Below are positions 2,662-49,981 of a stretch of 64,000 nt of DNA, piece by piece. The DNA comes from a virus. A program made the position numbers and the translations under genes. The notes under the pieces were generated by a model. The model made no database searches. It was not told the origin of the DNA and was given only the letters and a program-made list of their open reading frames with translations. Where the stretch lies: positions 1 to 64,000 of IMG/VR virus record IMGVR_UViG_3300012979_000037; one strand, 5' to 3'. Numbering within the stretch: the stretch's first letter is position 1; each line of letters opens with the position of its first letter.

Positions 2662-3228
2662 ATGATACATAGAATTAAAATAGTAGAATTATGTAAAAAT
2701 AATAATATATCTTCCAAAGAGCATGCAGAATTGATTATAAAAGAAATTCAAAATGCTTTAGATTTATATTTAGAAGTAATATTATCATTTAAAGGTGTCA
2801 AGAGTATATCATTTGAAGCATCAACAATTATTCGTAATTATATTTATGATAATAAGTTAGAGAACTGTATTTATCTTATAAACATGTCTCACTATGTTAG
2901 GCAAATATTCTTTTGCGGTCCTGATACTAAAAAAGAAACAAACGAAATGAATAATACAAATCAAAAAGAACTAAGTAAATTTAATAAATGGTTCCTCAAT
3001 TTTATGAACAATAAAGGAGGGGCTAAAATACTGGTTATGGTCGGTTTAACCTCATTAGCAATATTTTTAGGACCATTTTTCGTGCAGGTATTTAATCTAT
3101 TATGTTCTGACATGAATGGTGCATCAAAAGCTATTGTTATATTTGGTTTAGCTTGTGTAATAACAGTGTTAGTATGTCTTGTTAAGATGATAATTTTAGT
3201 CAATAAACAAACAGATTTTTTCAAGTGA
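2662..3228 (+). CDS. hypothetical membrane protein (C-terminal TM helices)
   Basis: Hydrophobic C-terminal ~60 aa (ILVMVGLTSLAIFLGPFF...VIFGLACVITVLVCLV). Start moved to the ATG at 2662, just after the upstream stop. Confidence 0.5.
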   Translation: MIHRIKIVELCKNNNISSKEHAELIIKEIQNALDLYLEVILSFKGVKSISFEASTIIRNYIYDNKLENCIYLINMSHYVRQIFFCGPDTKKETNEMNNTNQKELSKFNKWFLNFMNNKGGAKILVMVGLTSLAIFLGPFFVQVFNLLCSDMNGASKAIVIFGLACVITVLVCLVKMIILVNKQTDFFK

Positions 3229-3229
3229 T

Positions 3230-3565
3230 ATGGGAAGAAACACATATTTTTCAGAAGAAATAGCAAAAAAGCTGGTAAAAATTGGCTTTTATGAAACAGT
3301 ACAATATTACAAAATTAAAGATAAACTCTATCCGAAACTTCCAGAGCCAGATGAATTAGTAACATGGCTACGGGAAAATAAAAATGTTTATATAGTTGTA
3401 GTACCAGATCCTGATCACCCTCTTAGACATCAGTTTAATTATTTTGTATATGCACCTGATGATTATAATGGTAGACCTAGATTGGTTTTAGAAGGTATTC
3501 ATTTTGATTTTGATAGTGCGACAATTGATGCAATTTTAGATTATTTAAACAAAGAAGTGTTATGA
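3230..3565 (+). CDS. hypothetical protein
   Basis: 111-aa ORF. Confidence 0.5.
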   Translation: MGRNTYFSEEIAKKLVKIGFYETVQYYKIKDKLYPKLPEPDELVTWLRENKNVYIVVVPDPDHPLRHQFNYFVYAPDDYNGRPRLVLEGIHFDFDSATIDAILDYLNKEVL

Positions 3566-3783
3566 AAAAATATAGTTGTAGAGTATTTAAAAATTTAGAT
3601 GATTTGTTATACTGGTTAAATAAAGAGCAAAAATACATTAATGTAGTAAGTATAATGTACGTGGATAGTAGTTTCCCTTATGAAGTTATTTTTTACACAG
3701 AAGCACAAAAATATTTTGAAGATTTTAAGAATAAAACGATAGAAGAAATAGATAAAAATTTGATGAATTATGAAAAACTATAG
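3562..3783 (+). CDS. hypothetical protein; paralog of the next small ORF
   Basis: 73-aa ORF. The motif YxW(L)N.EQ.INVVS..Y is shared with ORF 3770..3934. Confidence 0.5.
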   Translation: MKKYSCRVFKNLDDLLYWLNKEQKYINVVSIMYVDSSFPYEVIFYTEAQKYFEDFKNKTIEEIDKNLMNYEKL

Positions 3784-3934
3784 TTACCAATGGTTTAAAG
3801 ACGAAAACCAAATGTTAGAATGGTTAAATAGTAATCAAGAGATTAACGTGGTAAGTGTAATTTATCTTGAGCGTAATTTAAGTTATCGAGTGTTTTATTA
3901 CATTGAAGAAGAATTTAAGAATGGTCGTGAATAA
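3770..3934 (+). CDS. small hypothetical protein (54 aa; sub-threshold tandem paralog of 3562..3783)
   Basis: The translation MKNYSYQWFKDENQMLEWLNSNQEINVVSVIYLERNLSYRVFYY matches the upstream gene MKKYSCRVFKNLDDLLYWLNKEQKYINVVSIMYVDSSFPYEVIFY. Confidence 0.4.
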   Translation: MKNYSYQWFKDENQMLEWLNSNQEINVVSVIYLERNLSYRVFYYIEEEFKNGRE

Positions 3935-3938
3935 ACAT

Positions 3939-4256
3939 ATGGAAAGAGTAACAGAACAAAATATACAAAGATTTTACGAAGGTAGTAAAATTTTTCATGT
4001 AAGTCCATTAGATGGAAAAGAGTCTATTTATCGTTACGTAATGGTAGATGGTGATTATATTATTGTTAGAGAACTTAATTTGCTTGCATTGTTATCAGAA
4101 CAATGGGGGGATATTACATCGCTTACGGAATCGCAAATATTTAACTGTAATTTCTATTTCTTTGATGAGAAAAAAGTATTAGAGAAGCAAATTGAATGGC
4201 ACGAAAATGAAATAAGAAGGTTGCAAAATAAAATTGATACTATTTATTGTGTTTAA
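3939..4256 (+). CDS. hypothetical protein (track start 3903)
   Basis: ORF 3903..4256; the Met at 3939 follows the stop of the small paralog. Confidence 0.45.
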   Translation: MERVTEQNIQRFYEGSKIFHVSPLDGKESIYRYVMVDGDYIIVRELNLLALLSEQWGDITSLTESQIFNCNFYFFDEKKVLEKQIEWHENEIRRLQNKIDTIYCV

Positions 4257-4306
4257 TTTTGTTCAGAAATTTAATATATTATATTGTAACTAAAATTTAA
4301 AAAGAT

Positions 4307-4735
4307 ATGACATTAATTCAAATTTATTTTATTATAGCTGGAATAATTTTATTGGGTAAGTTTTTGTTTAAACTTTTTACCTTTAATTATCTAAAACGCT
4401 TTATTAGTGAGAATAAAGAAACCATAGACGAATTACTTATATATGAACCCAAATTAAAAAGTACTGAAAAACAACATATATATCTTATAAAGGAAGGTTC
4501 ATTAACATATAGTGATTTAATAATTTACCATTTTTCAACAAATTCAATAAAATATGAAGATTATTCGGATGAAATGAATACGTTCTTAATAGATGATGCG
4601 TCATGTTTCGAAATAATACTATATATTTTATTTGCTTTATTCTGGATAATCTCGATTCCTTGTGTATTGCTTTGTATGTTGATAGGATGGTTCGGAGAAA
4701 GGTTCGATAAATTTGCTAAATCTATTTTATCATGA
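4307..4735 (+). CDS. hypothetical membrane protein
   Basis: Hydrophobic segments at the N-terminus and C-terminus. Confidence 0.5.
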   Translation: MTLIQIYFIIAGIILLGKFLFKLFTFNYLKRFISENKETIDELLIYEPKLKSTEKQHIYLIKEGSLTYSDLIIYHFSTNSIKYEDYSDEMNTFLIDDASCFEIILYILFALFWIISIPCVLLCMLIGWFGERFDKFAKSILS

Positions 4736-28741: not shown

Positions 28742-29809
28742 TCATCTTGATCCGAACTTCTTGGCTTTAGTAGCGACGTTAAAGATTGCTTTGATACCGT
28801 TCGGAAATTGAACGTTACTTGTGACCTCCGCACCACAATGAGGACAAGTTTGTCTCAATTTTTCACTTGGATTGATAGTGATGTTTCTTACAACATCATT
28901 CATAAATGAGAACATATCCACACTCCAAGCTTTATACTCTTTATAAATCTTTTGAATTTGACGATCTAACATTTGAGCATCCTTTGAAGCTTTTGGTAAC
29001 ATCCAAACTAAATAAGTAATAAATGTCTCATCAATTTTACCTCCAGCACGAACCTTTGCAGTAGCCCAATCAATAATTGCTTGATCTTTTCCAATTGTAG
29101 GAGTATAGAGTGTAATTACTGGATCATCCAAATCATAATCGCTTGGATCAATCACCCAATTTTCACCATTCCAATAATTTTCAATTAAGTCCTCATCAGG
29201 AAATTCATAAAAGAGATTTTCACTACGAAGTGTATACATCAACTCCTCATCACACTCTGAACAAGTATCTTCAAATTCAATTTTTTGTTCTCCGGTTACA
29301 AAGGTTAACTCGCGAATCTTTAATGTAAACCAAAAACGATCCCAAGAATTAATATTTTGCCAACTTACACTACTTGTAGGAGTTTGAATTTTTACACAAG
29401 TTCTAATAATATCATTAAATACATTATTTACAATATCAGGACGCTCTTCATCAATTGCTGTCCAATTCTTAATAGCTTGTACTGTGGCTGGACGCACGTA
29501 GAAAGTCCAATCTTCTGGATAGAATTGAGAACGAATACCCATCTCTTCACGATCAATTGGCATCCAACCCTCACTAATACTTGTAATACTTTGTTCCTCT
29601 TCTCTTGCTGCAGAACCTACAATTGAAAGTTTGCGCGACTTATTGAGAAACTCTTGCATTTCTTGACGTTCTTGATCAGTCAATTGTTCCTCCTTTGTCT
29701 TTCCATAACGTTCCAATTTTCCTAATGACTTAGGTTGTTCTTCTTGAATTACTCCCATATCTCCAATTTGAGACTCTAGAGTACTGTAATCTTGTGTGTC
29801 TTTTTTCAT
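28742..29809 (-). CDS. hypothetical protein with C-terminal zinc ribbon, divergent from the terminase gene
   Basis: 355-aa acidic protein; motifs CSECDEE...CPHCGAEV. Confidence 0.5.
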   Translation of the reverse strand: MKKDTQDYSTLESQIGDMGVIQEEQPKSLGKLERYGKTKEEQLTDQERQEMQEFLNKSRKLSIVGSAAREEEQSITSISEGWMPIDREEMGIRSQFYPEDWTFYVRPATVQAIKNWTAIDEERPDIVNNVFNDIIRTCVKIQTPTSSVSWQNINSWDRFWFTLKIRELTFVTGEQKIEFEDTCSECDEELMYTLRSENLFYEFPDEDLIENYWNGENWVIDPSDYDLDDPVITLYTPTIGKDQAIIDWATAKVRAGGKIDETFITYLVWMLPKASKDAQMLDRQIQKIYKEYKAWSVDMFSFMNDVVRNITINPSEKLRQTCPHCGAEVTSNVQFPNGIKAIFNVATKAKKFGSR

Positions 29810-29923
29810 TTTTATAAAACGTTTTATTTTTATGAATAATATATAATAGAGTCTAATTTTTTAAAGGTTTTTATTGAAAAAATATTCAAAATTTATATTA
29901 TATAGATAATTAAATCAATATAA

Positions 29924-30523
29924 ATGAGTGAATTTAATCCTATTAAACAAGATAAAGATGGAGTAGTAGCGAAAAGAGTTGTGTGGACTACTAAATCTAT
30001 TGAAGCCGCAATTAAAGGACTTGTAGAGGGTCGAAAGTTAGTGGCTAATCCATTTTATGAATATAATACAAAACTATTAAAAGGAGAGTTGGTATTTAAA
30101 AGAACTCAGGAGGAAATTGATGAGTTTAGAAAATGTATGAACAATGTTGTTTACTTTGCTGAAACTCATTGTCAATTGATGACTCCGGAAGGTATTCAAC
30201 ATATTAAACTTCGTGATTACCAAATTAAATATTTGAAGCATTTGGAAAATAATAGGTTGAGTATTTATAGGGCTTGTAGGCAGTGCGCGAAGTGTGTGAT
30301 TCCTATTGAGTTAGTAAGAATTAAAGTAAAAGACGAGTTATTTGTCGGCAAGTTAAAAAAAGAGGATTGGAATAATTATTATATAAATGATAATATTTAT
30401 GAATTACCTCTATTTGAAGTTATGAATTTATATAAAACTGGATGGAGATGGTTTGTAAAATACCAACTATATAAATTAATCTACAAAATTAACCAGTATA
30501 ATGAAAGACGGAAGAAAAAATAG
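29924..30523 (+). CDS. terL: terminase large subunit N-terminal fragment (N-extein through the Walker A Lys) plus intein N-fragment
   Basis: NVVYFAETHCQLMTPEGIQHIKLRDYQIKYLKHLENNRLSIYRACRQCAK aligns with T4 gp17 [51 protein letters not shown]. It then continues from a Cys into about 76 aa of non-terminase sequence (CVIPIELVRIKVKDE...). Confidence 0.65.
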   Translation: MSEFNPIKQDKDGVVAKRVVWTTKSIEAAIKGLVEGRKLVANPFYEYNTKLLKGELVFKRTQEEIDEFRKCMNNVVYFAETHCQLMTPEGIQHIKLRDYQIKYLKHLENNRLSIYRACRQCAKCVIPIELVRIKVKDELFVGKLKKEDWNNYYINDNIYELPLFEVMNLYKTGWRWFVKYQLYKLIYKINQYNERRKKK

Positions 30524-31619
30524 AAAAATACCTAAAGAAAATCAATGGAAAAATCTTGAATTTTATATTAAAAGAAATCCTGATAAAACGTTAGAAGAAT
30601 GTAAATTAATTTGGCAACAAACTCTATTAAAATCAAAACAATCAAAACGAACTAATATTGAATATTGGAAGACTAAATATCCAAACTACACTGAAGAGCA
30701 AATAAATAAAGTTTTTACTCAATATAAAAGAGAAAATTGTTTTCAATGTATAGAATATTGGATTAAAAGAAATCCTGATAAAACGTTAGAAGAATGTCAA
30801 GAATTGCTTACCCAAGCAAAACAATCGTATATAAAAAAAAGACCAAATAATCGAGGTAAAAATAATCCGGGTCATAAATCAAAAACTACACTTCAACAAA
30901 GAAGAGAACGTTCAGCAAGCTGTATTGAATTCTGGAGAAAAAAATATCCAAACTCTACTGAAGATGAATTGAAAAAATATTTAGAAAATCATTTAATTAA
31001 GCTTAAACAATCTCATACTCCAGAAAATACAATAACTCGAATCGAATATTGGCTATCTAGAGGTTATGATGAAGAAAACGCTTATTTAAAAATGAAAGAA
31101 GAGCACTATAAAAGATCATTTACTTTAGAAAAATGCATTAAAAAATATGGAGAAGAAAAAGGAATAGAAGTTTTTAATAAAAGACAGGAAAAATGGAAAA
31201 AATCCTTATATAAAAATTTTGAAAAATATGGAGATGGAAGAAGTTCTCAAAGTGAATTCGCTCATACTATCATATGTCAAATTTGCGATTATTTAAACCT
31301 AAATGTAAATGATTTTACTAAAGAAAAATGGCTTACCGATAAAAGTACAAATAGACATTATTCTTACGATTTTACTTATAATAAAAAAATCATAGAATTT
31401 AATGGAGATTATTGGCACGCGAATCCAGATTTATATGACGAAACCTTTTTTAATGTACGTAAAAATATGACCGCTGAAGAAATTTGGTTGTATGATAAAC
31501 AAAAAATACAATGCGCTAATAAAAACGGATATAAAACCCATATTGTGTGGGAAAATAATTGGAATAACAATAAAGAATTTGAATTACAAAAATGTATTGA
31601 TTTTTTAACAAATGATTAA
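30501..31619 (+). CDS. free-standing homing-endonuclease-like protein with 5 N-terminal helical repeats and a C-terminal Vsr/DUF559-type PD-(D/E)xK nuclease domain
   Basis: Repeats IEYW(K/I/R/L)..(Y/N)P(N/D)...E(E/D) occur five times. C-terminus FNGDYWHANPDLY...EEIWLYDKQKIQCANKNGYKTHIVWENNW. Lies between the two terminase fragments in a third reading frame. Confidence 0.55.
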   Translation: MKDGRKNRKIPKENQWKNLEFYIKRNPDKTLEECKLIWQQTLLKSKQSKRTNIEYWKTKYPNYTEEQINKVFTQYKRENCFQCIEYWIKRNPDKTLEECQELLTQAKQSYIKKRPNNRGKNNPGHKSKTTLQQRRERSASCIEFWRKKYPNSTEDELKKYLENHLIKLKQSHTPENTITRIEYWLSRGYDEENAYLKMKEEHYKRSFTLEKCIKKYGEEKGIEVFNKRQEKWKKSLYKNFEKYGDGRSSQSEFAHTIICQICDYLNLNVNDFTKEKWLTDKSTNRHYSYDFTYNKKIIEFNGDYWHANPDLYDETFFNVRKNMTAEEIWLYDKQKIQCANKNGYKTHIVWENNWNNNKEFELQKCIDFLTND

Positions 31620-33465
31620 TTTTTTATTAAATATTATCTATAAAATTGTTGAGTTTTTAGATAAACAAAATGAGCAAGAAGATAAAATAGTATGGTCTCA
31701 TATACTCAATGGAGTAGAAGTCTATTCAAAATCAGGTTGGGTACCTGCGACATATATTCATGAAACTAAACCATTTATAGTATATAAGATAACTACTAAA
31801 AATGGTCTTCATTTAGATTGCGCTGATGATCATTTAGTTTTTGATGAAAATATGAATACTATTTTAGTAAAAGATTTAAAAATAGGAAGTAATATTCAAA
31901 CAGAATTTGGTTTAGATAAAATAGTAAATATTGAAAAGGTAGATATAAAAATATCAATGTGCGACTTATCAGTATTAGAAGAAGATGAAAGTTATTATAC
32001 AAATCATATATTATCCCATAATACTACTACTTCAGCTATATTCCTCTTACATTACGCTCTTTTTAATACCGATAAAAACACATTAGTTTTGGGGAATAAA
32101 CGCAAAACAGCTGTCGAGATATTAGATAAAATTAAGAAGATTTATTTAGAGATTCCTTACTATCTCAAACCGGGTATTTTAAAATGGAATGAAAGTGAAA
32201 TCGTCTTCGATAATGGATGTAGAGTAATGGCTGAAGCTACTACAATCAACTCAGGTATTTCATTTACCTTTCACTGCGTACTAGCAGACGAGTTCGCTCA
32301 CGTACCACCAAACATTCTTGATAAGTTCTATAATAACCTATTCCCTACTATTACCGCAGGTAGAGCTCGTTTTATCATTACATCAACCCCACTGGATTAT
32401 AATTTGTTTTATAGATTATATAAAGCAGCGGAAGCCGGAGAAAACGACTATGCTCCATTTAGTACAGATTGGTGGGAAGTACCTGAGTGGAATCCCGATA
32501 AACGTTGTTGGGAGAAGAGAGATGAAGAATGGCATCAACGTCAAATAGCCAACTATGGTAGTGAGGAAGCTTTTAATAAGCAATTTGGTGCTTCATTTGA
32601 TGTTAATGCAAATACCTTAGTGAAAGTTAAAAAGATTAAAGAAATGAGAGAAAGAGCTGTGGAGTTTATAAATAAAGATATATATGGAGTCTCTCATAGT
32701 GAGTTCTTCTCTTGGGATCCCACTTATGATCCTATGGAAGATCTAAAAAAAGACCACATAATTATTACTTGTGACTTAGCTGAGGGTGGTGGAAATGATT
32801 ATACTGTATTCATTTTTAATAAGTTACAAAAAGATGATACTATGAAAACCATTGGAATGTTTAGATGTAATAGTTTAGGTTTGGATGTAACATCAAAAAT
32901 ATTACAGGAGATATGTTGTAAATGGTGTAATTTTGATAGATTATTAGTAAGTATTGAATTAAATATGTATGGCGAGTTATTCAGTAAAATGTTATTTACA
33001 AATAGGGATACATATAATGATTTAGCTAATTTTGATGAAACTTGTTTAGTTAAGTATTATAATAAAGAAGGTAATAAGTTTACATATGGTATTAAATTGA
33101 ACTCTGGTAACAAATCAATGGGTTGTAAGTTGTTTAAAGAGAAAGTAGAAAAGGATATAGTATCAAACTTATCAACAACATTCTTAATGGAGTTGGAAAA
33201 CTTTAGTGATAATAAGGGTAATGATACATACCAAGCAACATTTGGACACGATGATGTTGTAATGGCTCAAATGCAAATTGTATTTGTTTTACAAACACCT
33301 CAATATAAATTTTTATTAGAAGATTTACAATCTGGATTATCTTCCACCCAAAAAGATTTTTATAATCCTTACCAAGATTTTTATGATCAAAATTCTTATT
33401 ATAATAATGATATATTTAATGAAGTATATAGTGAAAGTCATATAAGAAGATTAAATAGATTTTAA
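31612..33465 (+). CDS. terL: intein C-fragment (Hint blocks B, F, G ending ILSHN) fused to the terminase large subunit C-extein (ATPase remainder plus nuclease)
   Basis: Residues 1-137 contain GLHLDCADDHLVF (block B TxxH-like) and MCDLSVLEEDESYYTNHILSHN (blocks F/G, terminal HN). From T138, TTTSAIFLLHYALFNTDKN...CVLADEFAHV...GHDDVVMA aligns with T4 gp17 (GK)TTVVAIFLAHFVCFNKDK...IYIDECAF...YHDDLVMS. Confidence 0.7.
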   Translation: MINFLLNIIYKIVEFLDKQNEQEDKIVWSHILNGVEVYSKSGWVPATYIHETKPFIVYKITTKNGLHLDCADDHLVFDENMNTILVKDLKIGSNIQTEFGLDKIVNIEKVDIKISMCDLSVLEEDESYYTNHILSHNTTTSAIFLLHYALFNTDKNTLVLGNKRKTAVEILDKIKKIYLEIPYYLKPGILKWNESEIVFDNGCRVMAEATTINSGISFTFHCVLADEFAHVPPNILDKFYNNLFPTITAGRARFIITSTPLDYNLFYRLYKAAEAGENDYAPFSTDWWEVPEWNPDKRCWEKRDEEWHQRQIANYGSEEAFNKQFGASFDVNANTLVKVKKIKEMRERAVEFINKDIYGVSHSEFFSWDPTYDPMEDLKKDHIIITCDLAEGGGNDYTVFIFNKLQKDDTMKTIGMFRCNSLGLDVTSKILQEICCKWCNFDRLLVSIELNMYGELFSKMLFTNRDTYNDLANFDETCLVKYYNKEGNKFTYGIKLNSGNKSMGCKLFKEKVEKDIVSNLSTTFLMELENFSDNKGNDTYQATFGHDDVVMAQMQIVFVLQTPQYKFLLEDLQSGLSSTQKDFYNPYQDFYDQNSYYNNDIFNEVYSESHIRRLNRF

Positions 33466-33471
33466 TAAGGT

Positions 33472-34140
33472 ATGGAAGAAAGACAAGAAGAATTAAAGTT
33501 ACAAAATAAACGTAATGTAGGTAAATATGTAACCTTAAATAAAGGTCAAAAACCTAAAAAGGATTATAGTTTAATTAAAGATATTAGGGAGCAAAAACTT
33601 CACAAAGCCAATGTTGAAGTAAGAGATAAGGTTGCTAGAAAATATCTTACAGAGAACTATGATAGAAAAGGTCAATCATCTATCGTTCCAGGTCAATTAG
33701 TAATGTTCAATTACTTTAACCCTATTACAAAAGAGGACTTGGAATATTATGATGCAATGCCTTGTACAATATTCTTTGGAATTCACAACACAGAAAAAGG
33801 AAAGAGAATTATTGGATTTAATATACACTATTATCCTCCAAAGATTCGTTATCAAGTAATGAATCGTATATTTGAAATCTTTCGTCCTTTTTATATGAAA
33901 TCATTTAATTCTCCAATTAAATCTACAATGGAGCACTTTGAATACAATTGGTTAATGAAACAATTAGAAGAAGCTAAATTAGACTTTGGTGTACGTCAAT
34001 ACGATCCTTCACTATGTGGAAAGATAATTCCTATTCCTACGGAGGCTTGGGCCAAGGCAGTATTCACAGAAGGACATTTTAAAAAGAGTACAAGAGAAAA
34101 AATAATGAAATATTGGAAAGAAAGACTCCAGAAAACATAA
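33472..34140 (+). CDS. hypothetical protein
   Basis: 222-aa basic protein immediately after the terminase. Confidence 0.5.
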   Translation: MEERQEELKLQNKRNVGKYVTLNKGQKPKKDYSLIKDIREQKLHKANVEVRDKVARKYLTENYDRKGQSSIVPGQLVMFNYFNPITKEDLEYYDAMPCTIFFGIHNTEKGKRIIGFNIHYYPPKIRYQVMNRIFEIFRPFYMKSFNSPIKSTMEHFEYNWLMKQLEEAKLDFGVRQYDPSLCGKIIPIPTEAWAKAVFTEGHFKKSTREKIMKYWKERLQKT

Positions 34141-35359: not shown

Positions 35360-36124
35360 ATGAAAAATTTAGTATGTTTCGATGTTGAAACAACAGGACT
35401 AAGTCAAAAAGAAGATTTTATCATTCAACTTTCAATGGTTAAGTTGGATGAGCATTTACAAGAAATAGATTCTCGAAATTGGTATATTAAACCTGTACAT
35501 AATTACGAGATGAAACCTACAGCTATTGAAAAACACGGTATCACCAAGGAATTTTTGGAGAGTAATGGTGTAAATTTAAAGGATATTGCTGGTGAAATTA
35601 TTGAGTTCTTCGATAATTGCGACATTCTCACATATAATGGTAATTCTTTTGATGTAGGATTTTTATATAAAGATCTCAAATTGGTGGGGGTAGACTTCGA
35701 TTTTTCCGATAGAACTTTTTATGATGCTTTTGTGCTTTACAAACAACTCTATCCAAGTACTTTGGAAGCTGTATATAAAAGATATACTGGAAAGGAGTTG
35801 GATAATGCTCACAATGCTTTAAATGATGTTCGAGCTACAATTGAAGTATTTAAGCATTTGAAACAAGATGCTCAAAAGGTTGGTGTTGAAGATTTGAGTA
35901 CAGGATTGATTTCACCAGAAAATTCTATAAAGAGTGTGGTAATAGATGGTAAAGAAAGTATTGTATTTTCTTTTGGTAAATATAAGGATGATGAATTTTT
36001 AAGTGTTTATAAAAAAGATCCTTCATATATTAAATGGTTTTTATCTAATGTAGCTAGTGAATACACATTTAATATATTGAAAAAGTATTGCGAGAAAAAC
36101 AAAACAACGGAGAAATCACAGTAA
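35360..36124 (+). CDS. DEDD-family 3'-5' exonuclease (DnaQ / pol III epsilon-like)
   Basis: Exo I motif CFDVETTGL; Exo III-like HNALNDVRAT. Confidence 0.6.
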   Translation: MKNLVCFDVETTGLSQKEDFIIQLSMVKLDEHLQEIDSRNWYIKPVHNYEMKPTAIEKHGITKEFLESNGVNLKDIAGEIIEFFDNCDILTYNGNSFDVGFLYKDLKLVGVDFDFSDRTFYDAFVLYKQLYPSTLEAVYKRYTGKELDNAHNALNDVRATIEVFKHLKQDAQKVGVEDLSTGLISPENSIKSVVIDGKESIVFSFGKYKDDEFLSVYKKDPSYIKWFLSNVASEYTFNILKKYCEKNKTTEKSQ

Positions 36125-36498: not shown

Positions 36499-37668
36499 AT
36501 GGCAAAGAAAAAACAAGATTCTAAACAAGAGAATCAACAAGAGGTTCAAAAACCTCAACGCGAACAACGAACTGTGTGGGTTCTTGACACACAAGCAAGT
36601 CCAAAATCAACATTGGATTATGAATGGCCTAAGTTCAAGAGTGACAAGGAGCGTATTAAATACATGTCACAACACTACAAGGACTATGCTATTACAGAGG
36701 TATTCAAAATGGAGTCTGGTGTAACTTGTAATGTACGTAATGTAGCTCAAGTAAATACAACACCTCGTGATCTTTACACTGGTCAAATTGTTCCAATGCA
36801 AATCTCCCATATTTCTAAAAATGGTGTAATGTTTGATAACATTGGTACTAAGCAAAACATTCAATCCAGTGTAAATCTCTGGAAGTATGAGAAGTTTCGT
36901 CACTTCCTTCCTACAGATGACATCAATGTAAAGGTAATCTCTGTAACTAAAGATCGTGTACAAGTGGATCCTTTGGCTCCAATGTATGAGTCTTGGTTGA
37001 ATGGAATTCTTCAAGATGTTGATGTCCAAAAGAACATTAATGAACCAAAAGCAGTTCTTGTAAAAAATCTTCGATTGACTCGAGGTGGATTTATGGGTAA
37101 GGCTGTTATTCCAAATGTTAGTGAGTTTGTAGGTGCGGAGTATACAGTAGATGCATTCATTCCAGGTTCTCAAATTGTTCTTAATATTGAGAATGACTTT
37201 ACCAAATGGGAGGGAAAAGAGGTTTATGCGTTTGTAACCAATTACATCAATAAACCAAATGACCCAAGTCAAATGTCACTCATTTGTTCAGCTAAGGAGT
37301 ATTTGAAGTTCCACGGTGATCTTAATATGGTTAAACTCTTTAAGGCTTGCTGTGAGAATAATGAAATTTGGCAACATCACGTCAATCACACCTTTAATGG
37401 TAGGGTAACAGGTATTATTAACTCAAGTAAAAAGTGTGGTGTATTTGTAGAGATTCCTGAGTTGTTGATCACTGGAATGATTCCAATGAAACCTGAGGAG
37501 TTGGTAAAATACAAACCACAAATGGAAGTAGGAGTAAAACTTGTTGATTTTGAAGAGGATACATATTTTGATTCAGTTGTACAACAATTGCGTCACAATG
37601 AACCTTACAAGATTGAGGATGGTGTTTTGCGAGAGGTTAATGTAAAACCTGTACTTGCATTGGCTTAA
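36499..37668 (+). CDS. S1-like RNA-binding domain protein (putative)
   Basis: Segments GRVTGIINSSKKCGVFVEIPELLITGMIP and GKAVIPNVSEFVGAEYTVDAFIPGSQIV resemble S1/OB folds; codon usage is less AT-skewed than the surroundings. Confidence 0.35.
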   Translation: MAKKKQDSKQENQQEVQKPQREQRTVWVLDTQASPKSTLDYEWPKFKSDKERIKYMSQHYKDYAITEVFKMESGVTCNVRNVAQVNTTPRDLYTGQIVPMQISHISKNGVMFDNIGTKQNIQSSVNLWKYEKFRHFLPTDDINVKVISVTKDRVQVDPLAPMYESWLNGILQDVDVQKNINEPKAVLVKNLRLTRGGFMGKAVIPNVSEFVGAEYTVDAFIPGSQIVLNIENDFTKWEGKEVYAFVTNYINKPNDPSQMSLICSAKEYLKFHGDLNMVKLFKACCENNEIWQHHVNHTFNGRVTGIINSSKKCGVFVEIPELLITGMIPMKPEELVKYKPQMEVGVKLVDFEEDTYFDSVVQQLRHNEPYKIEDGVLREVNVKPVLALA

Positions 37669-44062: not shown

Positions 44063-44662
44063 ATGATAATTAGAAAGAAGTTTAATGTAGAAAGTGCTCA
44101 CATTGTACGTAATTGCACTTCAGAGAGATGCTCTCACTCAATTCACGGCCACTCTGCTGTGATTGAAGTATTTTTGGAAAGTAATTTTTTGGATAATGCG
44201 CAAATGGTTTATGATTTTGGACTAATGAAGTCTACTATTAAACAATTTGTTGATTCTATGGATCATTGCTATCTATTGTGTTCTCAGGATAGTGAGGAGT
44301 TTAAGAGTTTTATTAAGTCTACCTGTGATCGTTGGATTGAACTTCCATTTAATCCTTCAGCAGAGATGTTGAGTATGTTTGTATTTTCAGGAGTTCAAAA
44401 GATTTTGAATAATACATATAAAAATAATGGGGAGGATTATATTCAAACACACGCTGTTCGTTATCACGAAACAACTACAGGTTATGCTGAGTGTAATGCT
44501 ATGGATGTTGCTAGATTTCAAAATATTATTGATTTTGATTCTATCATATATTCAGAAGGTGTAATGAAAGATTGGGGTAGTGATTTGAAATCTATCTTTG
44601 AGGGAGATGTAGTTACTAATCCTCTTATTAAACAACAAATAAAGTTAAATACAATTCTTTAA
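44063..44662 (+). CDS. queD: 6-carboxy-5,6,7,8-tetrahydropterin synthase QueD-like (with C-terminal extension)
   Basis: Motifs FNVESAHIV and CSHSIHGHSAVIEV (Cys-x-x-x-His-Gly-His) match the QueD/PTPS zinc site. Confidence 0.65.
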   Translation: MIIRKKFNVESAHIVRNCTSERCSHSIHGHSAVIEVFLESNFLDNAQMVYDFGLMKSTIKQFVDSMDHCYLLCSQDSEEFKSFIKSTCDRWIELPFNPSAEMLSMFVFSGVQKILNNTYKNNGEDYIQTHAVRYHETTTGYAECNAMDVARFQNIIDFDSIIYSEGVMKDWGSDLKSIFEGDVVTNPLIKQQIKLNTIL

Positions 44663-44663
44663 T

Positions 44664-45470
44664 ATGTTACCAGTAGTAGAAATTTTTACAAGTATTCAAG
44701 GTGAAGGTAAATTCACAGGAGTTCCTTCAATCTTTGTGAGAGTAAGTGGTTGTAATTTGAGATGTGTGTTTAAAGACTCAGTATGTGATACTCCTTATAC
44801 TTCATTTAATCCAGAGCATAGTTTATATAAATCAATGGATGAATTGGTAAAAGCATTTAAGGAAGAGCAAGAAAGATATCCACGAGTTAAACACGTAGTA
44901 GTTACAGGTGGTGAACCATTAATGTATAAGAGGGATTTGGAAGAGTTTTTAGCTCGTGTGTATGATGATACAATGATGATCACTATTGAAACAAACGGTA
45001 CTAAACCAATTTTGAATCCATTGAATGGTAAGTTTAGAATTGAGTTATATAGTGTGAGTCCAAAATTGAGTACCTCAGTAGGTAAACCAGGTAAGTATAA
45101 TGGTGTAGAAGTAACACAAGGAATGATTGAACGTCACAATTGTGAGAGACTTAATTATCAAAACTTGGTGGATATTGCAACAAGTGCGAACTATCAATTT
45201 AAGTTTGTATATAGTGGTCCAGAGTGTGTTGAAGAGATTAAGAATATTTATAGAGAGATGGGAAAGATTGTTTGTAATCAAGATGATCAATTCTATAATT
45301 TCTATATGAAACATCACCCAATGAAACACACAATGCTTATGCCAGAGGGCATTAAAGTAGATCAATTGGATCAAAAAACAAAGGAAATGGCTCAAGTATG
45401 TTTAGAAAATGGTTGGCAATTTACAGATCGTTTACACATTCGTATTTGGGGTGATATGAGAGGAGTGTAA
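44664..45470 (+). CDS. queE: 7-carboxy-7-deazaguanine synthase QueE (radical SAM)
   Basis: PVVEIFTSIQGEGKFTGVPSIFVRVSGCNLRCVF..DSVCDT at the N-terminus; C-terminal RIWGDMRGV parallels LLWGNKRGV of bacterial QueE. Confidence 0.75.
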   Translation: MLPVVEIFTSIQGEGKFTGVPSIFVRVSGCNLRCVFKDSVCDTPYTSFNPEHSLYKSMDELVKAFKEEQERYPRVKHVVVTGGEPLMYKRDLEEFLARVYDDTMMITIETNGTKPILNPLNGKFRIELYSVSPKLSTSVGKPGKYNGVEVTQGMIERHNCERLNYQNLVDIATSANYQFKFVYSGPECVEEIKNIYREMGKIVCNQDDQFYNFYMKHHPMKHTMLMPEGIKVDQLDQKTKEMAQVCLENGWQFTDRLHIRIWGDMRGV

Positions 45471-45473
45471 GTT

Positions 45474-45686
45474 ATGAAAAGTGTATTTTTATTAGAACAA
45501 AAGATTTTTAATGGCACTATATTAATAGCCACTATTAATACCGGATTTAGTACTAAAGAATTAGCAGAAAAGGCATTACAATCTACAAAAAAAGCCAATG
45601 AAGATGGTGAGTTTATTAATACATATAATATAAACGAAATCCAAATTTATGAGGAAGAACAAGAAATACCAATAATGAATAAATAA
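45474..45686 (+). CDS. hypothetical protein
   Basis: 70-aa ORF. Confidence 0.4.
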   Translation: MKSVFLLEQKIFNGTILIATINTGFSTKELAEKALQSTKKANEDGEFINTYNINEIQIYEEEQEIPIMNK

Positions 45687-45694
45687 AATCTGCG

Positions 45695-46000
45695 ATGAAA
45701 ACTAGACTTTTAAAGAAGCTTAGAAAAACAGCAAAGAATAAATTCTTTCCAGTTTTACTTGAAACCGGAATAGTTATTTCGACATATAATGAAACCGGAT
45801 ATAATAGATTGAATTTAACATACAGTATTGCTGGTAGTCCATATGCTTGGGTTAATCAATTTTCGCCTTGTTGGGTATTTGACACACAAAAGTCTATTCA
45901 AAAAATGTTAGATCGTGTTCGCCGAGATTTTATCATTGAATATATTAAAGCTGAAAAGGAAAAAAGGAGATTAAATAACGAATTCAATAAAATACAATAA
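45695..46000 (+). CDS. hypothetical protein; paralog of 15600..15956
   Basis: Shared N-terminus KTRLLKKLRKTAKNK. Confidence 0.45.
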   Translation: MKTRLLKKLRKTAKNKFFPVLLETGIVISTYNETGYNRLNLTYSIAGSPYAWVNQFSPCWVFDTQKSIQKMLDRVRRDFIIEYIKAEKEKRRLNNEFNKIQ

Positions 46001-46002
46001 TT

Positions 46003-46371
46003 ATGAAGAAAGAACAATATCCACTATATGTGGTAAATGAAGAGAAGAAAGCAATTTCTTGCAAAATTAAAACTAAAGGAGAATTTTTTATAGGTGTAGC
46101 GAAATGCTGCGACGAGGATACATTTGATATTCAACGAGGTAAAGACATCGCATATAATCGTTGTCGATTGGAGATTAATAAATATGTCCTCAATCAAGAC
46201 ATTGTTGTAAGGGACACCATTCAAGACATTATTCGTCAATACGATGGCATGGGGCTTTCAAAACAATGTAATAAGGCTTGGTATGATTATTTAGAGGATA
46301 TCAAACGCCGTATTAAAGTACGTAAAGCTATTATCTACCATACTGAACAAAAAATTAAAGAACTTTTGTAA
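46003..46371 (+). CDS. hypothetical protein
   Basis: 122-aa ORF. Confidence 0.45.
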   Translation: MKKEQYPLYVVNEEKKAISCKIKTKGEFFIGVAKCCDEDTFDIQRGKDIAYNRCRLEINKYVLNQDIVVRDTIQDIIRQYDGMGLSKQCNKAWYDYLEDIKRRIKVRKAIIYHTEQKIKELL

Positions 46372-46511
46372 TTTATATATAGCAATATCTCCATTGGATG
46401 TTGAGTATATGGTAGATAACGAATTAAAAAGTCCATCAAGAAATACAATATCAAAGTTACTGAATTGACCAGTGGCGTAGAAGATGGAATTAAACAAATA
46501 TATCGAACACA

Positions 46512-46934
46512 ATGATTAAAAGAGAATTGAAAAACGTAAAAGTGGATGATTTAATCCCATATGAAGCCAACCCACGTAGAAATAACAAATCTGCAAAAAT
46601 CGTAGCAAAATCAATTGAAGCGTATGGATATATAAATCCAATTCTAGTGACAGATAAAAATATCATCCTCGCTGGACATACTCGTCTTAAAGCACTTAAA
46701 CTTTTAGGTATCGAAGAGGTGGAAGTTTTAGTTATTTCTGGTTTGAGTGATGAACAAATCCACGGTTTTGTAATTGCGGATAACAGGGTAGGAGAATATT
46801 CTAGATGGAATTATGCGGCAGTTGATCGCATGATGGCTGGTGTTTCAAAAGATGATAAATTACTAAAAGAGCTTGGTATGAGTTCGTTTGTTGATAATAA
46901 AAAAGATTTGGAGGATTTGATTAATGGAAACTAA
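46512..46934 (+). CDS. ParB-like nuclease domain protein (mini DpdB-like partner of DpdA)
   Basis: LIPYEANPRRNN...LAGHTRLKALKLLG is the ParB N-terminal domain signature; overlaps the DpdA start. Confidence 0.55.
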   Translation: MIKRELKNVKVDDLIPYEANPRRNNKSAKIVAKSIEAYGYINPILVTDKNIILAGHTRLKALKLLGIEEVEVLVISGLSDEQIHGFVIADNRVGEYSRWNYAAVDRMMAGVSKDDKLLKELGMSSFVDNKKDLEDLINGN

Positions 46935-47790
46935 TAATGAACATAAATTAGTATATGGTTTAGGTGGAGGCTTAGTTTATTCTTGTGGTAGTAAAGGTAA
47001 ATGGAAACAAGTTCTACCAAAACTCTTGGCTTCGATCGATAATTGTGTATTGATTTCGACAGTTGATATGCCAAAAATCGCGGCTCAATTTATTGAACAA
47101 TGTGTTGGTGCAGATCGTTTATATATAGACTCTGGTGGTTTTACATTATATAAACAACAAAACAAACTAGGTGCAGATAATCCAGAGTTCCATAAGGAAT
47201 GTGAAAGAATGAAAAATAAATTTCTCAACCTTCTTAAAAGCACTAAATGTTGTGAATGTTTCGAGCTCGATAATGAATATTTCCGTCACGATGAAGATCT
47301 AATGTCACCAAAAAATTATTGCCGCGAGGAAGTAAAAGCAATTACCGGGTTCTATCCTACACCAGTATTCAAAATGCATCAAGGTTTCGAATATTGGAAG
47401 CGCCTCTGTGAGAGTGATATGTATGATAAACTGGCGATTGGTGGTTTAGCTATGACAAAAGATTGGGGTAAGTATAGTGATGAATTCCGTAAAATGATGA
47501 ACTATGCTCGTGATTGTGGTAAAAAGGTCCATTTGCTTGGATGCCAAAATGTGGATACTTTTAAAACGGTTAAACCAGATACCATCGATTACTCTATATT
47601 TCAATACGCCATCAACTTAGCTCATGCGAAAAAGGAACATCCTGAATTGGAAACTTATGAGGACTTGAAAATTCATGCAGTTTTGTATGCATTTGCCCGA
47701 GCAAAATCGCGTAGTTTCTTATATGATCATTTTATAGAGGGTGAAGATGACGAATTAGAAATAATTAATGAAAATTATAAAGAAATATAA
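46924..47790 (+). CDS. dpdA: DpdA-like DNA-guanine transglycosylase (TGT superfamily)
   Basis: LYIDSGGFTLYKQ parallels TGT LTDSGGFQ; LAIGGLAMTKDW parallels TGT AVGGLAVGE; no zinc-binding subdomain, as in phage DpdA. Confidence 0.55.
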   Translation: METNNEHKLVYGLGGGLVYSCGSKGKWKQVLPKLLASIDNCVLISTVDMPKIAAQFIEQCVGADRLYIDSGGFTLYKQQNKLGADNPEFHKECERMKNKFLNLLKSTKCCECFELDNEYFRHDEDLMSPKNYCREEVKAITGFYPTPVFKMHQGFEYWKRLCESDMYDKLAIGGLAMTKDWGKYSDEFRKMMNYARDCGKKVHLLGCQNVDTFKTVKPDTIDYSIFQYAINLAHAKKEHPELETYEDLKIHAVLYAFARAKSRSFLYDHFIEGEDDELEIINENYKEI

Positions 47791-47830
47791 TAAATTATAT
47801 ATTTTATATTAAATTTAAACTGTAAAGAAT

Positions 47831-48787
47831 ATGAATAATGAAATTAAAGTAAAAGATTTAAAGAGAGAGTATGATAGTACGTTTGCTCCATCTCAAGAGT
47901 ATTTAGATTCAATGCCTGATCTTCAAAATAGTGACTTTGTAGGTATTCCAATTGATTTTGTGGGTATTCATAACTTCCACTTACCAATCCGTATCAAAGA
48001 AAAGAGCGGAGATACCCAAGAAGTGATGGCTAGTATTACAGGTACAGTGTCTTTGGATGCTTCTAATCGAGGAATTAATATGTCCCGTATTATTCGTACA
48101 TTCTATAAATCAAAAGATGATATTTTTGATATTAATAAATTGGAGGAGGTATTGAGAAACTATCAAAAGGATTTGAAGACGTTTGATGCTCACCTTCTTA
48201 TGAATTTTAAATATCGTATTTGGCAAGACGCTCTTCGTAGTGTTAAAGAAGATGGTACTCCAGAAGGTGGTTGGCAATATTATAATATTACATTTGATTG
48301 CAATTTAGATCATAATGGAGAATTTAAAAAGATTATGTGGATGGATTACGTTTATAGTTCGGCTTGCCCTTGTAGTACAGCTCTTTCTGAACACGCTGCT
48401 TTAACTCGAGGTGTATATGGTATTCCTCACTCACAACGTTCTATTGCAAGAATTGGCATAGAATTTGATGAGTTGCTTTGGATCGAGGATATATTAGATA
48501 TGTGTAATCGAGCTCTTACAACTGAAACATTAGTATTCTGTAAGAGACAAGATGAACAAAGTTTTGCCGAGAAAAATGGAGCTCAACCTAAATTTGTAGA
48601 AGATGCTATACGATATATGGCTAATGAATTGAATACTGATCAACGAGTATTAGATTATAAAGTAATTTGTTCTCACCAGGAAAGTTTACATAGTCATGAG
48701 GCGGTCGCTGTTATTACAAAGGGGTTAAAAAATTCAGTATTCAATCATCACGTAACTCTTGGAGAGTGGCATAGTATGAAGGTATAG
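47831..48787 (+). CDS. folE2: GTP cyclohydrolase I type 2 (FolE2 / GCYH-IB)
   Basis: PDLQ...VGIPIDFVGI...RGINMSRII matches the FolE2/MptA family; 318 aa. Confidence 0.65.
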   Translation: MNNEIKVKDLKREYDSTFAPSQEYLDSMPDLQNSDFVGIPIDFVGIHNFHLPIRIKEKSGDTQEVMASITGTVSLDASNRGINMSRIIRTFYKSKDDIFDINKLEEVLRNYQKDLKTFDAHLLMNFKYRIWQDALRSVKEDGTPEGGWQYYNITFDCNLDHNGEFKKIMWMDYVYSSACPCSTALSEHAALTRGVYGIPHSQRSIARIGIEFDELLWIEDILDMCNRALTTETLVFCKRQDEQSFAEKNGAQPKFVEDAIRYMANELNTDQRVLDYKVICSHQESLHSHEAVAVITKGLKNSVFNHHVTLGEWHSMKV

Positions 48788-48832: not shown

Positions 48833-49981
48833 ATGCAATGTATTCTTTTATTATATAAACATAAAGATACATTGCATTTACTTATGAATATTATGAATAG
48901 TAGAAATTATAAATATCATTACTTTTATCGGATAATTAATAAAAATACAAATCAATATTATTTCGGAATACATAGCACAAATAATCTCAATGATAATTAT
49001 ATGGGCTCAGGAACGTTCCTGAAAAAAGAATATAGAGAACATGGTAAAGAGAATTTTATAAAAGAAATTTTAAAATTTTTCGACGATAGAAAAACTCTAT
49101 TGGAATATGAAAAAAAGATAGTTAATGAAGATATTTTATCAGATCCCCTATGTTTAAATATAGCGAAGGGTGGCGTAACTTCTTCAGAGGAACATTTTAC
49201 CACAGGATTAGTGACTGTGCGTGATATTCATGGAAATTGTTTTGATGTGAAAAAAAACGATCCACGATACTTATCCGGAGAATTACAATCTGTGAATAAG
49301 AATATGGTAACAGTGCGGGATAAATTTGGTAAAACATTTAAAGTTAGTATAGATGATCCCCGATATACATCAGGTGAATTAATTATAATATCAAAAGGTA
49401 ATAAAGGAATAACTGGAAGGATTGCTGTATCTAAAGCTGGTCAAAATAAATTCATATTGAAAGAAGAGTTAAATGAGTATATTTCGAACGGGTGGGTTCG
49501 CAATTCAATTCAAAAAGGCAGAATAAGTCCAACTAAAAATAAAGTGTGGATATATAAAGATAATGTAATGAAATGTGTAGATAAAAATAACGTGTCTAAA
49601 TATATAAATGATGGTTGGAAAAAAGGTCGTTTAGTCAATGCATTAAAAGGTCAAATAGGAATAATGAAGGATGGTGTATCAAAATATATAAAACGCGATG
49701 AATTAAATCAATATATTTCAGATGGGTGGAGACTGGGAATGAAAACACGAAATAAAGGGAAAATCACAGTATATGATGATTCCGGTAAAATATTTCACAT
49801 AACAAAAGATGATTCGCGGTGGATAAATAAGGAAGTTAAATTAATACAATTTAAAAACGGATCACCAGCAAAAGGACTAATATATATAAATAAAAATAAT
49901 AATATTAAAAGGGTGAAACCTGACGTATTACAAGAATATTTAAATAATGGCTGGAGTAAAGGGATGAAATCCAAAAATTAA
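48833..49981 (+). CDS. GIY-YIG homing endonuclease (Seg-like) with repeated DNA-binding modules
   Basis: KYHYFYRIINKNTNQYYFGIHST...YMGSG is the GIY-YIG motif (start probably at Met 48887 or 48896). It is followed by repeated VTVRD..G..F.V...DPRY.SGEL and (N/S)DGW(K/R).G(R/M) modules. Confidence 0.65.
   Translation: MQCILLLYKHKDTLHLLMNIMNSRNYKYHYFYRIINKNTNQYYFGIHSTNNLNDNYMGSGTFLKKEYREHGKENFIKEILKFFDDRKTLLEYEKKIVNEDILSDPLCLNIAKGGVTSSEEHFTTGLVTVRDIHGNCFDVKKNDPRYLSGELQSVNKNMVTVRDKFGKTFKVSIDDPRYTSGELIIISKGNKGITGRIAVSKAGQNKFILKEELNEYISNGWVRNSIQKGRISPTKNKVWIYKDNVMKCVDKNNVSKYINDGWKKGRLVNALKGQIGIMKDGVSKYIKRDELNQYISDGWRLGMKTRNKGKITVYDDSGKIFHITKDDSRWINKEVKLIQFKNGSPAKGLIYINKNNNIKRVKPDVLQEYLNNGWSKGMKSKN

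Follow-up and report, generated by a model that had tools for sequence, protein, structure and literature searches.

How does a phage obtain a working packaging ATPase when the gene for it is broken inside the ATP-binding loop? The question is raised by positions 29924-33465 (+ strand) of a virus sequence, IMG/VR record IMGVR_UViG_3300012979_000037, of which positions 1 to 64,000 were analysed; this whole stretch of 64,000 nucleotides (nt) is called the window. The broken gene codes for a T4-type terminase large subunit (TerL). The explanation that we favour, and hold with considerable confidence, is that TerL has been fractured by a mobile element, a class-1 split intein together with a free-standing Vsr-like homing endonuclease gene, which interrupts the Walker A loop just after its Lys codon and ahead of its Thr codon. 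The two pieces of TerL would then be joined by protein trans-splicing.

The broken gene and its parts

The locus consists of three overlapping open reading frames (ORFs), each in its own frame, and adjacent ORFs overlap by 23 nt (N-fragment and endonuclease) and 8 nt (endonuclease and C-fragment). An earlier note on this DNA had described two halves of TerL in different frames, with an endonuclease-like ORF between them that overlaps both, and the ORFs agree with it. The parts, with lengths in amino acids (aa), are as follows.

29924-30523, +, N-fragment ORF, 199 aa: TerL residues 1-123 and a 76-aa N-intein
29924-30292, +, TerL N-extein, aa 1-123, with gp17 and phrog_5989 matches, ending ...YRACRQCAK, the first half of Walker A
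30293-30445, +, block A part of the N-intein: Cys1, strand CVIPIELVRIKV, a clade-specific insert of about 22 aa, and IYELPLFEVMNLY
30446-30523, +, tail helix of the N-intein (RWFVKYQLYKLIYKINQY...), basic end and TAG stop; the final 23 nt lie within the endonuclease ORF
30501-31619, +, endonuclease ORF, predicted Vsr-like (EDxHD-type), 372 aa
31368-70 (D290), 31395-97 (E299), 31416-18 (H306) and 31494-96 (D332), +, predicted Vsr-like catalytic residues of the C-terminal nuclease
31612-33465, +, C-fragment ORF, 617 aa: a 137-aa C-intein and the rest of TerL
31612-31695, +, leader of the C-intein: hydrophobic helix MINFLLNIIYKIVEFLDK and a linker
31696-32022, +, Hint core of the C-intein: block B LDCADDH, block F Asp118, block G SHN (32014-22)
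32023-33465, +, TerL C-extein from Thr+1: TTTSAIFLL, the remainder of Walker A, then the ATPase and nuclease domains

The inserted element is thus 30293-32022, or 1730 base pairs (bp), between the Lys and the Thr of the Walker A loop. Read from the DNA, Lys123 is 30290-30292 and Cys1 of the intein (Cys124 of the ORF) is 30293-30295, so the start at 30294 given in the earlier note was off by one. The block B His74 is at 31831-33, the block F Asp118 at 31963-65, the terminal His-Asn at 32017-32022 and Thr+1 at 32023-32025. The ATG of the C-fragment overlaps the stop codon of the endonuclease in the sequence ATGATTAA.

Both exteins are readily recognised as terminase. Residues 54-124 of the N-fragment align with residues 121-192 of T4 gp17, ending ...SRQLGK (PDB 2o0h; expectation value, E, 5e-10), and the N-extein matches phrog_5989, terminase large subunit, with E 5e-16. 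The C-fragment takes up the alignment at aa 137-568, against gp17 residues 191-585 from KTTVVAIF (TTTSAIF in the window), with E 2.5e-35, and its extein matches Pfam Terminase_6N (E 9e-10). What precedes the C-extein is of another kind: in a PDB sequence search, aa 23-137 of the C-fragment match the intein chains gp41-1 (residues 22-128, E 6e-5) and CatC (residues 6-112, E 7e-5). Among GenBank phages no DNA similarity to the locus was found, and the nearest cultured TerL is that of Tenacibaculum phage PTm1, at 31% aa identity. A look-up of the exact C-fragment sequence found no identical record.

The base composition changes along the locus. From 30300 to 31950 the G+C content is 0.23-0.28, with an AT skew of up to +0.34, and at 32100-32550, which codes for the TerL ATPase, the G+C content is 0.36-0.41. 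A separate history could account for the higher AT of the intein and endonuclease segment, and so could the composition of a Lys-rich endonuclease.

Empty alleles and the spread of the element

The exact insertion site is known because related phages carry the gene without the intein. In the IMG/VR relatives L001-L003, TerL is uninterrupted and collinear with the window's exteins, and it reads ...CRQC(G/S)K directly followed by TT(T/M)SA.... For example, one empty allele has ...LSIYLACRQCSK followed by TTMSALFMLHY... (the variants among L001-L003 are similar), and the window's exteins, once joined, would read ...LSIYRACRQCAK followed by TTTSAIFLLHY.... The gp17 alignments and these alleles together bear out the placing of the interruption inside Walker A, between Lys and Thr, in the earlier note. 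The junction of the invariant Lys with the nucleophilic Thr in a P-loop is the 'classic' intein site, described for the TerL1-a inteins of mycobacteriophages (PMC5050341).

Comparison of close relatives shows how cleanly the element is inserted. The flanks of the split locus L017 and the empty locus L032 have about 90% and 87% nucleotide identity, and L017 has 1518 additional bases placed precisely and in frame between AAA (Lys) and ACN (Thr). In L015 compared with L029, the insertion is likewise exactly between AAA and ACN. Over the first 300 nt downstream of that insertion (L015 2533-2832, L029 4858-5157), identity is only 77-87%, and over the following 700 nt it is 92-98%, mostly 96-98%; this tract of reduced identity resembles the trace that co-conversion from a divergent donor would leave. 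The 23 IMG/VR loci retrieved with an N-fragment profile comprise 6 split alleles, 1 contiguous allele and 16 empty ones, and a neighbour-joining tree of the exteins has split alleles interspersed among empty ones.

The split form is widespread. In the protein collection, 397 homologues of the N-fragment were found; the lengths of the 120 listed all fall within 188-253 aa, and identity among the matches listed is 49-98% over essentially the full length. When the 137-aa C-intein was searched exhaustively, 747 representative clusters (50% identity) matched it at E up to 1e-3. Among the best 150 of these 747, the C-intein stands at the very N-terminus, as in an atypically split intein, in at least 89, and 30 are contiguous inteins in which RQxxK is followed by Cys or Ser. 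In the same 150 clusters the median length of the C-intein is 124 aa, and the +1 residue is Thr in 95, Ser in 24 and Cys in 4. Contiguous inteins lacking an endonuclease occur at the same site in L012 (an 835-aa TerL), in P0126 and in many more; across the C-intein and extein, P0126 shares about 82% nucleotide identity with L010, a split locus. The rarity that the earlier note implied does not stand, since the arrangement was published in 2009 (PMC2677866) and relatives are found in hundreds of sequence clusters.

The gene between the halves is predicted to code for a Vsr-like (EDxHD-type) homing endonuclease, a reading that leans on motif positions and annotated relatives. Four to five copies of the module IEYW-x-K-x-P-x-x-T-x-EE make up its N-terminal half; they are also visible as the internal DNA repeats D1 and D3, and they match nothing in Pfam, NUMOD included. 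In the C-terminal half, D290, E299, N-G-D-Y-W-H306 and D332 are invariant in nine homologues. An hhalign alignment with E. coli Vsr pairs IEFNGDYWH with IFTHGCFWH and GYK..IVWE with GWRVLIVWE; this puts H306 opposite His69, W305 opposite Trp68 and E299 opposite Phe62 of Vsr, and the D332 region opposite the ERDRRD segment, which holds Asp97 by residue count. An extra invariant Glu at the position of Vsr Phe62 is a trait of Vsr-like, or EDxHD, homing endonucleases (PMC2677866, PMC3239194). The ORF also matches phrog_22677 (E 1e-14), and in tblastn it matches ORFs of T4-like and other phages whose annotation is VSR endonuclease, including the one at the gp43 split-intein locus of Aeromonas phage Aes123. 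The window's own endonuclease matches no Pfam family significantly; 6 of its 9 homologues weakly match PF18741 (REase_MTES_1575) and 2 of the 9 match DUF559. PDB sequence searches with the endonuclease alone and with a nine-sequence profile gave chance matches only, with neither 3R3P nor Vsr among them.

In co-infection, such an enzyme would be expected to cut alleles lacking the endonuclease or the intein, which would be its target, and the element would spread by recombinational repair of the break. Selection on the locus was measured as the ratio of nonsynonymous to synonymous substitution rates (dN/dS), computed part by part between the window and L004:

N-extein, 0.15
N-intein, 0.24
endonuclease, 0.10
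C-intein, 0.125
C-extein, 0.06

All parts of the locus are under purifying selection. The tail of the N-intein has 78% aa identity to L004, with synonymous sites saturated.

One could also suppose that the element is now immobile, with halves that still trans-splice, an endonuclease that is inactive or domesticated, and a fractured state that is inherited vertically. The split state does dominate the clade, as the counts of N-fragment homologues and of clusters indicate; no target site was identified, and no co-conversion gradient was seen between L017 and L032. An inactive or domesticated enzyme fits poorly, however, with the dN/dS of the endonuclease gene and with its EDxHD-type residues, which are invariant in all nine homologues. 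Vertical inheritance is likewise at odds with the alternation of split and empty forms among close relatives and with the tract of reduced identity beside the insertion in L015. We therefore consider immobility an unlikely alternative to the mobile element.

Three further observations concern the wider family. In the TerL C-fragments P0002 and P0132, a short-leader atypical C-intein occupies the same Lys/Thr site, and further downstream there is an apparent start of a second intein (...IRGKS followed by CLTGNTRV..., and ...IDEC followed by IGGNSEITV...). The same type of atypical C-intein (...YTNGILSHN followed by SMW...) stands at the N-terminus of DnaB-like helicase fragments (PF03796) in P0141 and P0137, so the intein lineage is not confined to terminases. 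Finally, the intein-less relative L002 has at 3050-4609, between a baseplate-hub-like gene and the uninterrupted TerL, a 519-aa ORF in which KQTCLERYG-type modules recur; it is probably a further endonuclease-like gene, again free-standing, on the 5' side of TerL.

Two other matches have a simpler origin. P0003 (93 aa, on a 515-bp contig) matches the last part of the window's C-intein and the start of its C-extein at 96% identity and then continues as an AraC-type helix-turn-helix sequence, and it is most likely an assembly chimera. P0161 (1805 aa, 19 'stretches') was rejected as a spurious match, being a translated tandem repeat.

The intein and the place where it is split

The residues needed for splicing are kept on both sides of the break. 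In the N-intein, Cys1 (right after Lys123), Y152, P162, E165 and N168 are invariant in 26 homologues, as are W176, Y180 and K184 of its tail. In the C-intein, C70, D72, H74, D118, S135 and H136 are invariant in 21 sequences, and the block F D118, the block G H136-N137 and T+1 are conserved in the same set. The leader of the C-intein is kept in 14 split homologues and is missing from the short C-inteins of the AceL/Cat type. The locus thus has the marks of a class 1 intein: a nucleophile at position 1, the block F Asp, the block G His-Asn, Thr+1 and a precise in-frame insertion.

For the fold, P0126, a contiguous homologue, was modelled with AlphaFold2 from an alignment that included contiguous homologues. 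This superseded an earlier run with unpaired rows for the N- and C-fragments, in which the N part of the intein was poorly modelled (predicted local distance difference test score, pLDDT, 65.8). The P0126 model has a mean pLDDT of 86.7. Its order is the block A strand (45-50), two short helices formed by the clade-specific insert, a strand (78-82) and a helix (83-88), with block A region residues at a pLDDT of about 90-96, and then a helix (94-111), a short loop, a second helix (115-131) and the standard Hint core. Foldseek comparison of the model gave template modelling scores of 0.72 to gp41-1 (root-mean-square deviation, rmsd, 1.9 A), 0.71 to Cat and 0.67 to VidaL, and its extein part fits gp17 with an rmsd of 2.1 A.

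The model also indicates where the chain is interrupted. The tail of the N-fragment corresponds to helix 94-111 and the leader of the C-fragment to helix 115-131; in contiguous homologues the tail (...W-x-x-K-Y-x-L-Y-K...) and the leader (...I-x-x-I-x-x-L-L-D/N...) are only a few residues apart. The window's stop codon and restart map to the loop between the two helices, which places the split in the loop of a two-helix hairpin after block A, with one helix left on each half. The C-fragment holds every Hint motif except block A (motif N1). The earlier note had proposed a Hint domain split after block A with a long C-part, and the matches to gp41-1 and CatC, the conserved catalytic residues and the model of the contiguous homologue uphold it. 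It had also seen a repeat of the region before block B in the segments KTGW and KSGW. No DNA direct repeat links the two sites. Contiguous homologues have each of the two segments, one as the beginning of helix 1 and the other as the strand that leads up to block B, and on the N side most family members have D-x-S-F-x-W and not KTGW. The likeness is a coincidence and not a duplication.

A course of events can be proposed from these parts. An endonuclease gene placed inside the intein coding sequence, in the hairpin loop, breaks the gene into two polypeptides. One would be TerL(1-123)-IntN, whose 76 aa of intein comprise block A and helix 1, and the other IntC-TerL(124-603), whose 137 aa of intein comprise helix 2 and all the remaining Hint motifs. 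The three overlapping ORFs would be co-transcribed and translationally coupled. The intein halves would associate, probably aided by the hydrophobic helices, which could re-form the hairpin and so help the halves find each other. Trans-splicing would then proceed through Cys1, the block B His, the block F Asp, the terminal Asn and Thr+1, and ...CRQCAK would be joined to TTTSAIF..., by which the P-loop of an active packaging ATPase would be rebuilt.

Canonical split inteins associate by electrostatic 'capture and collapse', and Cat by the threading of a short peptide. We consider it plausible, though somewhat less likely than not, that the hairpin is autonomous and that its loop was invaded by the endonuclease gene. 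The helices would then form a heterodimerising zipper that docks the 76-aa N-piece to the C-piece, an association mode unlike either of these, and the empty, contiguous and split alleles found today would be a live record of how a mini-intein becomes a split one through a free-standing endonuclease.

Several points weigh against the explanation by a mobile split intein. Trans-splicing of the window's halves is itself predicted from sequence. Block B has Ala in place of the canonical Thr of TxxH (C-A-D-x-H) throughout the family; VidaL also has Ala here (CAFNH), and by that analogy the change is probably tolerated. PDB sequence searches with the N-intein alone, and with a profile of 18 N-inteins, returned nothing meaningful, and the N-intein is assigned because of Cys1, its position, the contiguous homologues and the P0126 model. 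That model is of a protein 54-63% identical to the window's halves and not of the window's own two chains, whose Hint fold is thus predicted by homology. The hhalign match of the endonuclease to E. coli Vsr is statistically weak (E 2e-3, probability 13%). Lastly, searches at the starts of the endonuclease and the C-fragment gave no promoter, Shine-Dalgarno motif or hairpin.

This last point can be set in the context of the whole window. Shine-Dalgarno motifs are not enriched there (6 of 67 ORFs, with 6.25 expected from random 17-mers), so the absence of ribosome-binding sites at the locus is uninformative. ORF leaders are A-rich (49% A, against 37% overall, at a window G+C content of 28.8%). 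The phage may be a T4-like phage of a host with Shine-Dalgarno-independent initiation; that host is possibly a member of the Bacteroidota, and the nearest cultured TerL belongs to a Tenacibaculum phage. The overlap ATGATTAA suggests that the C-fragment is translationally coupled to the endonuclease. Sigma-70-like promoters and terminators were not above shuffled expectation. The sequence TATAAATA, a perfect T4-type late promoter, is absent from the + strand between 28378 and 32667, and the whole window has 52 occurrences where 24.9 are expected.

Could the TerL fragments assemble non-covalently, with the intein remnants and helices as mere interaction domains? The conserved hydrophobic tail and leader helices could mediate such an association, and there is a precedent in the endonuclease-fractured NrdA of phage Aeh1, which reportedly assembles through element-derived residues (PMC3045599). 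The break in TerL lies within the P-loop, however, and assembly of this kind would leave about 213 aa of intein in the ATP-binding site. Furthermore, all the splicing residues (Cys1, the block B His, the block F Asp, His-Asn and Thr+1) are invariant across divergent homologues, and association alone needs none of them. Non-covalent assembly is thus very improbable.

Artefact or intron

It might be objected that the locus is really a single intein ORF, with an endonuclease domain nested in it, which two frameshift errors in sequencing or assembly have divided. A run of six A residues (30513-30518) does lie in the overlap of the N-fragment and the endonuclease, where a single indel would fuse those ORFs. 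But in the frame of the C-fragment a TAA stands two codons ahead of the ATG, and a second, exact indel would be needed there, outside any homopolymer. In addition, no Vsr-like nuclease is known to form a domain within an intein reading frame, according to PMC2677866.

The recurrence of the layout is the more direct answer. The three ORFs with both overlaps are found again in contigs from ENA, Logan, NCBI and IMG/VR, with the split layout seen in L004, L007, L010, L013-L015, L017 and L019; in the relatives the N-fragment is about 200 aa, the endonuclease 302-402 aa and the C-fragment 617-688 aa. The overlap of the endonuclease 3' end with the C-intein ORF is 8 bp in the window and 8-25 bp in the relatives. 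Identical stops, starts and overlaps in independent assemblies at 39-98% identity mean that the layout is not an artefact. The earlier note had itself named a frameshifted contiguous ORF and a group I intron as alternatives; the first of these is answered here, and an error of this kind is now barely worth entertaining.

The second, in which the 1.7 kb would be a group I or group II intron with an endonuclease ORF and be removed from the RNA, has in its favour that Vsr-like endonucleases occur in group I introns (e.g., I-Bth0305I; PMC3239194), but it is scarcely credible given that an Rfam scan of 29500-33600 with E up to 10 found no group I intron or other intron family (the sole match being a chance one to IMES-4), that RNA folding at the two ORF junctions gave no hairpin better than shuffled sequences (z = +0.6 for the region upstream of the endonuclease), and that the insert runs from Cys to His-Asn in frame with the Hint motifs, with contiguous homologues that translate straight through.

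Comparison with known systems

The three-part arrangement of a fractured terminase is already known since 2009, and the window is a further, well-preserved case. In that year Dassa described 'fractured genes' from ocean metagenomes, in which split inteins have a free-standing GIY-YIG or Vsr-like endonuclease gene between their halves; they include a gp17-like terminase fractured so that the C-part misses motif N1 alone, with endonuclease 3' ends that overlap the C-intein ORFs by 6-69 bp and 27-51 nt of non-coding spacer ahead of the endonuclease gene, in many cases containing a hairpin or late promoter (PMC2677866). GOS-TerL, compared here by description, resembles the window in its gp17-like myovirus terminase, its unusual split after motif N1, its long C-part (122 aa, against 137 aa in the window) and a free-standing endonuclease gene on the same strand between the halves, whose 3' end overlaps the C-intein ORF. 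The window differs from GOS-TerL and the other published fractured loci in its 23-nt overlap of N-fragment and endonuclease in place of a spacer of 27-51 nt, and it differs from some of those loci in that no upstream hairpin or late promoter was found. GOS-TerL has Ser1 and Cys+1 (PMC11766414), whereas the window has Cys1 and Thr+1.

AceL-TerL (25-aa N-intein), GOS-TerL (37 aa) and the consensus Cat form the characterised atypical class (PMC11766414). The earlier note had suspected kinship with metagenomic atypical TerL split inteins, and the place of CatC among the best PDB matches of the C-intein supports it. CatC is 27% identical over its whole chain (E 7e-5), and both have a block F/G segment DL..(E/G)ED..YYTN.I.SHN of equal length. 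AceL-TerL and Cat (Thiel 2014; Stevens 2018; PDB 6dsl) share with the window a TerL host and a split that separates block A from the remainder of the Hint fold. Their N-inteins are 25-30 aa and their C-inteins 104 aa, with no helical tail or leader, whereas the window has one extra conserved helix per half and the clade-specific insert in block A. The N-intein of the window, at 76 aa (64-113 aa in relatives), is long compared with the 15-37 aa of the atypical class because of this insert and the conserved tail helix. The +1 residue is Thr in the window and apparently Cys in AceL-TerL, to judge from PMC11766414.

An identical layout occurs in a cultured T4-like phage, at gp43 of Aeromonas phage Aes123 (PolB1; JN377899; PDB 9hth), which has the three ORFs with both overlaps (16 and 17 nt). 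Its 'putative VSR endonuclease' is homologous to the window's (30% identity over 160 aa, E 8e-7). The host gene there is a DNA polymerase, in contrast to the terminase of the window, and the Aes123 split intein is described as cysteine-less and as studied for protein trans-splicing (PMC11923092).

Two other systems resemble parts of the element. The P-loop inteins of mycobacteriophage TerL1-a (Kelley et al. 2016, PMC5050341) are contiguous and lie in a Terminase_1-type TerL, whereas the window's is split and lies in a Terminase_6 (T4-type) TerL. The I-Bth0305I/EDxHD family (Taylor et al. 2011, PMC3239194) shares with the window's endonuclease a Vsr-like nuclease at the C-terminus, with conserved Asp, Glu, His and Asp, as well as repeats in an N-terminal part that putatively binds DNA, and it too is associated with fractured genes. 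The window's endonuclease has no detectable sequence match to the solved domain of I-Bth0305I (3R3P).

What is new here is the allelic series, the evidence for mobility and the break within a pre-existing helical hairpin. The locus does not overturn current understanding. It offers a natural series for the origin model of split inteins proposed in 2009, from the empty site through the contiguous mini-intein to the endonuclease-fractured intein, and the series includes near-identical phage backbones that differ solely by the element. If the halves splice as predicted, DNA packaging, an essential late function, would depend on protein trans-splicing in an apparently large clade of uncultured T4-like phages. 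The Cys1/Thr+1 atypically split intein with complementary helices, a putative activity as yet, might also serve as an engineering scaffold.

Elsewhere in the window

Downstream of the locus, at 35360-36124 (+), a separate 254-aa ORF matches 'DNA polymerase exonuclease subunit' (phrog_192, 4e-43), and the next ORF, of 389 aa (36499-37668), has no PHROG match. The polymerase may thus be split here, or its genes arranged in some other unusual way.

A 7-deazaguanine (preQ0) pathway cluster lies at 44063-48787 on the + strand and suggests that the phage modifies its own DNA with a 7-deazaguanine derivative. Its members are listed here.

44063-44662, +, QueD/PTPS
44664-45470, +, QueE radical SAM
46512-46934, +, ParB_N-like ORF
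46924-47790, +, tgt/DpdA-like ORF
47831-48787, +, FolE2

Directly after folE2, at 48833-49981 (+), there is a second free-standing homing-endonuclease-like gene, this one of the GIY-YIG type (PF01541, 5e-5; phrog_314, 1e-25).

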